IMG/VR virus record: IMGVR_UViG_2698536484_000002
Coordinates: 1-10,383 of that record
Reading direction: 5' to 3' (one strand)
Source: a virus
Lineage: Duplodnaviria > Heunggongvirae > Uroviricota > Caudoviricetes
DNA length: 10,383 nt
Part shown: piece after piece, positions 1 through 3,000 of the stretch
How positions within the stretch are numbered: position 1 is the stretch's first letter
How the letters are laid out: each line of letters opens with the position of its first letter
Position numbers: made by a program

Positions 1-3000
1 GCCAGCGTTGCGAGTGCTGTACTCATCCGTTTTATACCTCTGAATCAATATCAACCTGATGGTGAGCAATGGTTTCAACCATGTACCGGATGTGTTCTGC
101 CATGCGTTCCTGAAACTCAACATCGTCATCAAACGCACGGGTAATGGCTTTTTTGCTGGCCCCGTGGCGTTGCAAATGATCGATGCATAGCGATTCAAAC
201 AGGTGCTGGGGCAGGCCTTTTTCCATATCGTCTGCCAGTTCTGCCTCTTTCTCTTCACGGGCGATCTGCTGGTAGTGACGCGCCCAGCTCTGAGCCTCAA
301 GACGATCCTGAATGTAATAAGCGTTCATGGCTGAACTCCTGAAATAGCTGTGAAAATATCGCCCGCGAAATGCCGGGCTGATTAGGAAAACAGGAAAGGG
401 GGTTAGTGAATGCTTTTGCTTGATCTCAGTTTCAGCATTAATATCCATTTTTTATAAGCGTCGACGGCTTCACGAAACATCTTTTCATCGCCAATAAAAG
501 TGGCGATAGTGAATTTAGTCTGGATAGCCATAAGTGTTTGATCCATTTTTTGGGACTCCTGGCTGATTAAGTATGTCGATAAGGCGTTTCCATCCGTCAC
601 GTAATTTACGGGTGATTCGTTCAAGTAAAGATTCGGAAGGGCAGCCAGCAACAGGCCACCCTGCAATGGCATATTGCATGGTGTGCTCCTTATTTATACA
701 TAACGAAAAACGCCTCGAGTGAAGCGTTATTGGTATGCGGTAAAGCCGCGCTTAGGCGGCTGATGTTTCTTCTTTCAGGCTTTCGAGATATTTACGTGGG
801 TCGTCGTAACATTGGCATTCGCTGTACCAATCCACCCAGCGATCAGTAAGCCCCATCTCTGATAAATCTTCATCGGTAAGGCTCTCATCCCACATCTCAA
901 GGCCGTTAGCATTGCAGTAATCAGGCTTGATGTTGTTGTCATACTGAAAGGCGTCATAATCAGCCAGTGCGTCCATCAGACGAACACCCTCTTCAACACT
1001 TGCCACTTCTACAATGAACGGCTTCATAGGTACTTGCGGGATATGCCAGACACGTAATTTCATATATCCTCCGTCAAAAAAATTGCCCTCACACTGGAGG
1101 GCAAAGAAGATTTCCAATAATCAGAACAAGTCGGCTCCTGTTTAGTTACGAGCGACATTGCTCCGTGTATTCACTCGTTGGAATGAATACACAGTGCTTA
1201 TTCGTACTAATAAAATACCCAATTTTCTGTTTCTTGGTTGTGTCCAAAGTTATATTCAATATCTGGTGTTGATGTATCAATATTCTTCATACCATCAACA
1301 AGAGTTGATACAACAGCCAAATCTTGTTTGATTCTCATTAAATGGTATTTCTTCCGGCGCAATAAACTTTCAATGGCAAGTTTCTTCGTTGGGAATGCAA
1401 AAGATCTTTCTGCATTTTTTGCTACTTTCTTAATTGCATATCTATTTCTCCTTTGTTTCCATTCCTGTAACCACTGATTTGGTGCTGGTTTAAAATTAAC
1501 AATCCAATGCGCAGGAACCAACCATGCATAATGCTCTGTCTGATGAAAAGCTATATATTGAAGTGCGAATATTTTTATCCCATCTTCTTCAACTGTCGCC
1601 TGGAATCTCCAGAAAACAGGCATTCCATCATGTTCAGTTTCTGATTCAGGAAAAGGTACGCTCCATGATTTTGTCATATCTCACCTCAAATAAGTGGTTT
1701 GCTGCCTAATTTCATTTTCTGGCGACCAACACAAGTCACCTCGCCGTCAGTTGTTTTGATTTCCGGTAGCCTGCCGCGTAAATGGCTACGTTTGGAAGAC
1801 ATACACCAGTTTCTGGTTGCTTATGTCCAAACTCATTCGCGTACACAATGGCCGCTCGCTCCAGATTGCGTCTGTATTCTTTCTGTTGCCAGATCACGTC
1901 CTGTGCCATGAACTTAATTGGCTTAGCGTCTTCTATGCGCTCAGGCGTTTCGTGAGTACCTTTAGCCTGAATCTGCGCTCTGCTTAGAGTAGGGCGGTGT
2001 AATACTTCTGAACTTATTGCTTCTTCGCGGGCCAGTACGCCGTTAGCTAATGCCTTTGCCTTTAAACGCTCACGACGACGAGAACGTGAATTGCCTTTGA
2101 ACTGAGTTCTGCGTGTCATATAGACCTCCTGATGAACTTTGGTGGTGTGGTAGGTGGGAGACCCATTTCGACCTGTTTCGGCCTACTTCAATTCGGCAAT
2201 AGTCCCGCAGGCCTCGCCGCTTTACGTGCGACATATGCCCGTCCATGAACCCTTCACCACACCCCAAAGTTCACTTTGGTTATTGCGCTTTGTCAGCGCC
2301 GTAGATTCATATTCGAATCGTTGTATATTCACCGCCCTGGTGAGTAATGCGTCCTGCTGACGACGATAATAATGAACCAATAGTTCGGCATTATCAAGAA
2401 CTATTGGTACGAATTTTGGTGATTTATTAACTCTACGAAGTATGATTCTGATATATAAGGAAATTTATTTTTGAAAATGTGGCTGATGAAGGTTATGCGG
2501 CAGGGATCATAACTGCATGGTTTAGCGAGTTACATCAATAAATACAATTGGTTATGTTTTTTAGGTGGGCGAACGTGAGGCAAAGAAAACCCGGCGCTGA
2601 GGCCGGGCTAGATTTTAAAGTATTTATCTTTTAGAGATGTAGATGTAAAACTTTTCGCCTTTGAAAATTTTTTGTCATCAGAAGGGCTTATGAACTCATC
2701 TTTTTTGTAGGGAACCGCTAATGCTGCATCACGTCTGCGAGGCAGCTTGCTTACTTCCTCGCGCTTTTTCATGATCAGTTATCCTTTAATAACCTATACA
2801 GTTTTGTAGGGGTACATCCTGAGGATATTGTTAAGTTCGTAGCACGCCTTTTCCGCCCATCATCGTATAAACGAAAACCAGTAGTAGACGAATTTTCTGC
2901 GTCAAAAACTATAGACAGTATAGCGTCCCCAGACTTTTTTTGCCATTCGCATGTGCCGTTAGTTGGTTTCGTCATCTGTAGACGCCAGTCAAGAACGCCA

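Follow-up and report, generated by a model that had tools for sequence, protein, structure and literature searches.

The N leader of a 933W/H-19B-type phage: a conserved lambda-like long helix, a competing local hairpin and an exchangeable interior

The pL-to-N leader and its long helix

The DNA analysed here is a stretch of 10,383 nucleotides from a phage of the Caudoviricetes (IMG/VR virus record IMGVR_UViG_2698536484_000002, positions 1 to 10,383; the window), and this 10.4-kb segment comprises the early-left and immunity region of a Shiga-toxin (Stx) phage of the 933W/H-19B type. Its gene order is that of the 933W record, namely N, a small open reading frame (ORF), stk, two ORFs, cI, cro, cII, O and P; according to that record, the two ORFs between stk and cI encode a RuvC-like resolvase and a DUF3024 protein. 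The N antiterminator gene lies on the minus strand and hence the subject of this study, the RNA leader of N with its long helix and hairpins, belongs to the leftward transcript from the promoter pL. The 321-nt stretch that runs from pL into N is 99.4% identical to that of Stx2 phage I, of 933W-like phages and of many Stx1a and Stx2a phages, and N itself is 99-100% identical in 80 viral contigs. The pL promoter overlaps the OL1/OL2 operators (about 2373-2410), which are annotated in the 933W-like record GQ499361, and in the operator region 2376-2386 and 2398-2408 form a perfect inverted repeat of 11 bp. When GTCAGCAGGACGC is aligned with ATCAGCAGGACGC, the +1 sequence of lambda, transcription from pL would start at about 2361, and the N leader would thus be ~242 nt long. 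The features of this leader are collected in table 1.

The long helix lies on the pL transcript between the nutL boxB and the Shine-Dalgarno sequence of N. A repeat search recovered it as two blocks of inverted repeat (2139-2151/2256-2268 and 2133-2142/2264-2273) with a 1-nt bulge between them. An earlier inspection of the DNA without database searches (the sequence-only reading) had described a 16-17-bp stem (2134-2150 versus 2257-2272) ending 4 nt from the Shine-Dalgarno sequence. The repeat is real, but it is longer than was described: in RNA form it is a 19-bp helix that pairs 2273-2255 with 2152-2133 and leaves A2143 bulged, and its base, A2133, is 2 nt rather than 4 nt before the AGGAGG. 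The helix is present in both the minimum-energy and the centroid folds of leader segments of 263 and 161 nt (z = -4.3 and -4.2, respectively), and none of 200 shuffles folds as well.

Homologous leaders were gathered from annotated phage records, from the 80 viral contigs with a 99-100% identical N and from bacterial genomes, and 33 of them were distinct. The long helix is the minimum-energy fold in every one of the 33, so that the folding of the pL-to-N leader does favour the long stem, as had been anticipated. For the analysis of covariation, only the arms of 20 distinct leaders were aligned, with each interior swapped for a GAAA linker. Standard pairs make up 97.4% of the 380 cells of this alignment, and two-sided changes occur in 12 of the 19 helix pairs (65 cells). 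The covariation score is 0.49 as against 0.18 in shuffles, with 0 of 500 shuffles attaining the observed value; when the partner is slid by 1-3 columns as a control, pairing falls to 35-47%. The comparison of the two arms in related phages, which the sequence-only reading had named as a way to check its proposal, has thus come out in its favor, with compensatory change in 12 pairs of the 19. The arms contain 26 G-U and U-G pairs versus only 2 A-C pairs, and the N-sense strand has a fold 10 kcal/mol better than that of the complementary strand; because of this asymmetry and this better fold, the selection can be assigned to the helix in the leftward, N-sense RNA. The long helix is a conserved RNA structure, kept by compensatory change on the sense RNA. 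Its position relative to the N Shine-Dalgarno sequence is fixed in every leader where N directly follows the helix, its outer 10 bp are common to different types of interior and the bulged base is kept.

Table 1. Features of the N leader and associated elements (window coordinates, except in the last row)
Feature	Position	Strand	Remarks
N antiterminator gene, 127 aa, H-19B/933W type	1736..2119	-	annotated N in 933W and H-19B
N ribosome-binding site: Shine-Dalgarno AGGAGG 2130-2125, AUG 2119-2117	2117..2130	-	ribosome-binding site annotated in related records
3' arm of long helix, UACCACACC-A-CCAAAGUUCA, bulged A2143	2133..2152	-	repeat search, folding, covariation
Enclosed interior, type A, 102 nt	2153..2254	-	exchangeable module
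5' arm of long helix, UGAACUUUGGGGUGUGGUG	2255..2273	-	holds G/U-rich boxC-like motif matching lambda GGGGUGUGUG
Local hairpin CCAAAG-UGAA-CUUUGG	2264..2279	-	shares 2264-2273 with 5' arm of long helix
nutL boxB GCGCUGACAAAGCGC: 5-bp stem, GACAA loop; N-binding hairpin by type	2285..2299	-	fold energy -8.5 kcal/mol
Spacer hairpin 2, GAUUC-GAAUAU-GAAUC, then UACG (2303-2300)	2304..2319	-	minimum-energy fold, -4.3 kcal/mol
Spacer hairpin 1, UCACC-AGGGC-GGUGA	2329..2343	-	minimum-energy fold
Degenerate boxA-like CGCAUUACU, first 9 nt of annotated 933W nutL	2343..2351	-	43 nt upstream of boxB
pL promoter: -35 TTGATA, 17-nt spacer, -10 CATTAT	2369..2397	-	promoter scan, sigma-70-like
nutR: boxA-like CGCUAUUUU, GGAC-AUUC-GUCC hairpin, UACG, boxB UCGCUGACAAAGCGA	5767..5812	+	same design as nutL
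Copies of type-A interior in other leaders	L005 411-512; L006 413-514; L015 413-514		>=90% identity

The competing hairpin and the enclosed interior

The 5' arm of the long helix has a second possible partner. The sequence-only reading had pointed to the palindrome CCAAAGT-TC-ACTTTGG (2264-2279); the palindrome exists, but the 7-bp stem with a 2-nt loop that it implies is sterically impossible and the realistic form is a stem of 6 bp closed by a UGAA tetraloop. This local hairpin starts 5 nt downstream of boxB and overlaps the outer 10 bp of the long helix only. When progressively longer transcripts were folded, it was predicted at every length up to an end at 2140 and was gone by 2134. In these folds of the growing transcript, the long helix builds its inner half with the local hairpin still in place; its outer half is predicted to displace that hairpin only after CCAAAGUUC (2142-2134) is made.

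Counterparts built from other sequences recur in lambda (CAAAGC-AGAAG-GCUUUG) and in P22 (CCAAAC-GAGAUUG-GUUUGG) and, in an interrupted form, in phi80 and ArgO145 (CCA(A)..ACA-GGGAA-UGU..(U)UGG), a recurrence that supports the earlier suggestion of alternative leader conformations. Between families, the upstream, the shared and the distal arms change together, which argues that the local pairing has been selected and is not a by-product of the long helix. Within the 933W-type group the arms of the local hairpin are invariant, so its covariation comes from the between-family comparison only. Two roles can be suggested. The local hairpin may act as a co-transcriptional guard that times the formation of the RNase III site, since it would be present for ~120 nt of transcription before the partner arm appears; alternatively, it may re-form after cleavage as a 3'-terminal hairpin on the nutL RNA and there stabilise the nut RNA bound to RNA polymerase. 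In lambda the 5' cut presumably comes directly behind GCUUUGG, some 88-90 nt into the transcript. In that case the nutL fragment of lambda would end, on its 3' side, with the local hairpin, which fits the second of the two roles.

What the helix encloses is far less constant than the helix itself. At least nine unrelated types of interior are found inside the same helix; the shortest measure about 40 nt (SPN9CC, g341c) and the longest about 195 nt (L021 group). Phages with a 99-100% identical N have three unrelated interiors among them. Conversely, the type-A interior of the window is >=90% identical in phi80, in ArgO145-type phages and in the phage Louie, all of which have different nut sites flanking it and different genes downstream. 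The sequences of the inner arms vary together with the interior. Since the interior is swapped among phages that share N, the arms of the helix mark a point of mosaic exchange, and on this comparison the helix brackets a hot spot of module exchange. The helix may further serve as a fixed holder for exchangeable interior RNAs, from which RNase III, if it cut both arms, would release discrete RNAs of about 40 to 200 nt, perhaps with separate functions.

A conserved structure within the type-A interior was considered and dropped. RNAalifold applied to 13 type-A variants yielded hardly any covariation (1 pair, covariation term -0.25). GGCCUG and CAGGUC may pair, and in phi80 a U-A of this pairing is replaced by C-G, but the sequences are too few to carry it. 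At about 2231 (minus strand) the window differs by one base from 933W and most relatives (GGGCAUAUG vs GGGAAUAUG); the C variant, which is also present in the viral contigs L065 and L068, alters the predicted internal fold. The L021-L026 group, nine IMG/VR contigs with a 99-100% identical N, has a GC-rich, highly structured interior of about 195 nt, and in L021 (370-572) this large interior lies within the same helix and the leader fold reaches -102.6 kcal/mol. The 3' end of the interior in BIS08P22 (L008) and in a gut Enterobacteriaceae genome (L099) carries a stem-loop resembling the T-arm of a tRNA, GGUUCGACUCC; a CCACCA-like tail comes next and runs into the 3' arm. ARAGORN found no tRNA or transfer-messenger RNA in the interiors of 10 loci, and for this T-arm-like type neither ARAGORN nor Rfam reported a tRNA. 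In ArgO145-type phages (L006 222-234, 401-535 and 589-776) the hairpin module comes after an rrn-type boxA, UGCUCUUUAACAA, and no annotated N lies downstream; its place is taken by genes for IsrK-like RNA (58.7 bits) and C4 antisense RNA (77.1 bits) and by a Rha-family regulator.

The nut sites and neighboring features

The nutL boxB GCGCUGACAAAGCGC (2299-2285) is the same as that of P22 nutL, as the sequence-only reading had recognized, and it is also identical to H-19B's; its loop and core are found once more in the window, in nutR (5798-5812). The same reading was also correct in seeing no boxA. On the minus strand, from pL, whose -10 ends at 2369, to boxB, there are zero matches to CGCTCTTTA at <=2 mismatches. 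The canonical arrangement of lambda and P22, in which CGCUCUU(U)A lies within ~10 nt upstream of boxB, is absent here; P22, which shares the boxB, has the consensus boxA CGCUCUUUAAC 9 nt upstream of it. A P22-type boxB with no consensus boxA is the documented arrangement of nutL in 933W, where both nutL and nutR are annotated at exactly these window positions, the 67-nt nutL feature of the GenBank record (NC_000924) mapping to 2351-2285. Its first 9 nt, CGCAUUACU, agree with the consensus CGCUCUUUA at only 4 of 9 positions, and the homologous element (CGCACTACT; CGCACUACU) of the lambda-immunity relative mEp234 is annotated as 'putative boxA'.

The spacer between the boxA-like element and boxB holds two hairpins. 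The first has a variable loop among relatives and a counterpart in lambda, CACC-AUGAA-GGUG, located upstream of the lambda boxA. The second, whose stem is invariant in relatives with the loops GAAUAU, AAAUAU, AAGCAA, AAACAU, AGAGAU and AGUGAU, is the H-19B-type dyad symmetry of the nut spacer. H-19B itself has spacer dyad symmetries before UACG-boxB in both nut sites, as here, and an N protein of the same type. Its nutR is 100% identical over the 146-nt cro-cII interval and its nutL differs by 1 nt, in the boxA-like element; within the same leader helix it has a different interior (type B). Two marks of H-19B-type nut sites are found in the window: a boxB (GCGCUGACAAAGCGC/UCGCUGACAAAGCGA) that follows UACG, and a stem-loop in the spacer that separates it from the boxA-like element. 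In H-19B, boxA is reportedly dispensable and nut function independent of NusB and S10, and a published model of the spacer stem-loop is said to call it the 'reducer'. That H-19B nutR contains two hairpins is documented (PMC3526286). Because 933W/H-19B-type nut sites show the same lack of a consensus boxA, this lack is a documented property of the nut family and not an anomaly, and the missing boxA of the window fits the published H-19B-type sites. About 30 nt downstream of the nutR boxB there is, in addition, a 7-bp hairpin, UAUGCGU-UUCC-ACGCAUA (5838-5865, plus strand), identical in H-19B, which sits at the place taken in lambda nutR by the boxC hairpin and the tR1 region.

Several other candidates in and around the leader can be dealt with briefly. 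A scan of 2120-2300 found no intrinsic terminator or attenuator, and there is no U-tract after the helix. Two small ORFs in the leader, a 65-aa TTG ORF in the sense direction (2070-2267) and a 68-aa GTG ORF in the antisense direction (2154-2360), are not credible genes because phages with a 99-100% identical N carry three unrelated interiors; the sense ORF, moreover, overlaps the start of N in another frame. A search of Rfam with E up to 1 returned no match in 2120-2362 and none in 13 homologous leaders. The only significant match in the window is Lambda_thermo, the thermoregulator of cIII mRNA, at 634-692 on the minus strand (88.5 bits, E = 5e-21), and there is a cIII-like reading frame among the small minus-strand ORFs at 403-679. 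Upstream of pL, a GC-rich hairpin with U-tracts on both strands (2588-2609) is the equivalent of tM, which the 933W record gives as a putative terminator for the cI/stk (pM) transcript.

Relation to the lambda leader, rival explanations and biological meaning

The order pL, nutL, long hairpin, Shine-Dalgarno sequence and N is also that of lambda. There, nutL is located ~200 nt upstream of N with a highly structured leader in between, and N together with the Nus factors at NutL represses the translation of N. An RNase III hairpin between NUTL and the ribosome-binding site of N was reportedly described for lambda by Steege in 1987, Kameyama in 1991 and Wilson in 1997 and 2002. The processing of the lambda N leader RNA (Steege 1987) is cited in PMC5371410, and an effect of rnc70 on lambda N mRNA is treated in PMC8708148.

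After its nutL boxB the lambda leader (NC_001416) continues with UUCAAAGCAGAAGGCUUUGGGGUGUGUG, an interior and CCACACACC-A-CCAAAGCUAACUGACAGGAGAAUCCAGAUG. Its arms (GGCUUUGGGGUGUGUG ... CACACACC-A-CCAAAGC) are placed, like those of the window, after nutL and before the Shine-Dalgarno sequence of N, and the two sets of arms align column for column (CUUUGGGGUGUG with CACACC-A-CCAAAG), and columns 19-24 and 55-60 of the arm alignment are nearly invariant across lambda, 933W-type and phi80-type leaders. Since the arms align even to the bulged A, the helix of the window is the homologue of the lambda RNase III hairpin. Lambda also has a local hairpin upstream that overlaps the 5' arm. The two leaders are of similar length (223 nt in lambda versus ~242 nt here). 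Their enclosed sequences are unrelated, the N proteins belong to different sequence families, and the nutL of the window is without a consensus boxA, its structured spacer being 43 nt long. The phage Louie is a natural chimera of the two: its nutL, its outer arms and its N are those of lambda, but its inner arms and interior are of the window's type.

We read positions 2361-2120 (minus strand) as a lambda-like N leader, composed of an H-19B-type nutL, an RNase III-type hairpin and the ribosome-binding site and working by a mechanism derived from lambda, and we would give this reading a probability of roughly three in four. The lambda-like, RNase III-type character that the sequence-only reading had proposed is supported by the folds of the 33 leaders, by the covariation of the arms and by their alignment with the lambda hairpin. 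The element belongs to the lambda N-leader hairpin class as its 933W/H-19B-type member, one that a specialist would expect. Full-text searches found no account of a 933W or H-19B N-leader hairpin, and the study of Tree (2014) on small RNAs of enterohaemorrhagic Escherichia coli phages is silent on it.

For this phage we infer both cleavage by RNase III and the translational control of N by analogy, and likewise the role of the local hairpin. During transcription the local hairpin (2279-2264) would form first and hold the outer half of the 5' arm for ~120 nt before being displaced. In the intact leader, the base of the helix, 2 nt from the Shine-Dalgarno sequence, would contribute to the low translation of N, and the complex of N, nutL and RNA polymerase would stay tethered upstream of the ribosome-binding site and thus keep that translation low. 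A cut by RNase III within the helix would both remove the helix and sever nutL from the ribosome-binding site, and the local hairpin could then re-form on the nutL fragment. The consequence would be more synthesis of N, at a level tied to the physiology of the host.

Several observations weigh against this reading. In the literature consulted we found no cleavage or expression data for this phage. The lambda helix ends 8 nt from the Shine-Dalgarno sequence rather than the 2 nt seen here. In the predicted ensemble of the leader the Shine-Dalgarno sequence is only partly paired, and the unpaired probabilities of its G residues are predicted to rise only modestly when the RNA begins at 2141; because this gain in accessibility is modest, the mechanism probably does not lie wholly in direct sequestration of the Shine-Dalgarno sequence.

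The same architecture recurs in systems with other sequences. The leader of P22 gene 24 has the same layout of a local hairpin, a long helix with a bulged A (CGCCAGU-A-CCAAAG) and a ribosome-binding site, but its arm sequences, its interior and its antiterminator protein all differ from those of the window. In the leaders of rrn operons, arranged as boxB-boxA-boxC, a loading site for Nus factors precedes a G/U-rich boxC-like 5' arm, as it does in the window, and an RNase III site arises when this arm pairs with a 3' arm far away. Tethering of the rrn 5' arm to RNA polymerase has been proposed to aid this long-range pairing (PMC8632103; PMC4807359). The rrn helix, however, brackets 16S rRNA, with 1.7 kb enclosed as against ~100 nt here, and it serves cellular rRNA and ribosome biogenesis rather than the control of a phage regulator.

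A more ambitious version of the lambda-like reading would make the local hairpin a selected functional conformer common to lambdoid N leaders, with the helix perhaps holding exchangeable, excisable interior RNAs; we regard this as possible but doubtful. It is unlikely that the leader is a true regulatory switch, in which two stable conformers, set by temperature, by N/NusA at nutL or by transcription speed, would decide whether the RNase III site and the block of the ribosome-binding site form. The preservation of the local hairpin, with other sequences, in 933W-type, lambda and P22 leaders and in interrupted form in phi80-type leaders, its place 5 nt downstream of boxB and its predicted prevalence in the nascent RNA until the 3' arm appears would all suit such a device. 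At equilibrium, however, the long helix wins by -29.4 versus -6.4 kcal/mol and is present in every minimum-energy fold; the local hairpin competes for the outer 10 bp only, and its arms are invariant within the 933W-type group, their covariation being found between families only.

That the helix is only a steric or structural brake on ribosome binding, with no role for RNase III in this phage, we also think improbable. The proximity of the helix base to the Shine-Dalgarno sequence favors a brake, as does the predicted pairing in the full leader of two Shine-Dalgarno G residues with the CC at 2279-2278. Against this, the predicted accessibility shifts only modestly, the arms are homologous to those of the lambda hairpin, which is an RNase III substrate, and a conserved helix of ~20 bp with a conserved single bulge far exceeds what occlusion of a ribosome-binding site needs. 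Finally, a repeat acting at the level of DNA and not RNA, either as the terminal repeats of inserted cassettes or as a recombination hot spot, might be imagined from the at least nine unrelated enclosed types and the inner arms that change along with them, but it is very improbable given 26 G-U against 2 A-C pairs, an asymmetry that DNA complementarity or an antisense strand would not tolerate, the conserved bulge, the fixed position relative to the N Shine-Dalgarno sequence and the outer 10 bp common to the interior types; no target-site duplications or transposase-linked copies of the repeat were seen elsewhere.

Nothing here overturns the current understanding of N leaders. What the comparative data add to the lambda model, to a modest degree, is clear evidence from many phages that the long helix covaries, which we did not meet in the literature consulted; they also show that a competing local hairpin is conserved in four leader families and that modules are exchanged in the enclosed sequence, a hot spot of such exchange. 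In a Shiga-toxin prophage, N is expressed before any other gene upon induction, and its level gates delayed-early expression and, via Q, the production of toxin. Should this leader be processed in the lambda manner, the activity of the host's RNase III would tune the synthesis of N and with it the speed at which 933W-type phages commit to lytic growth.

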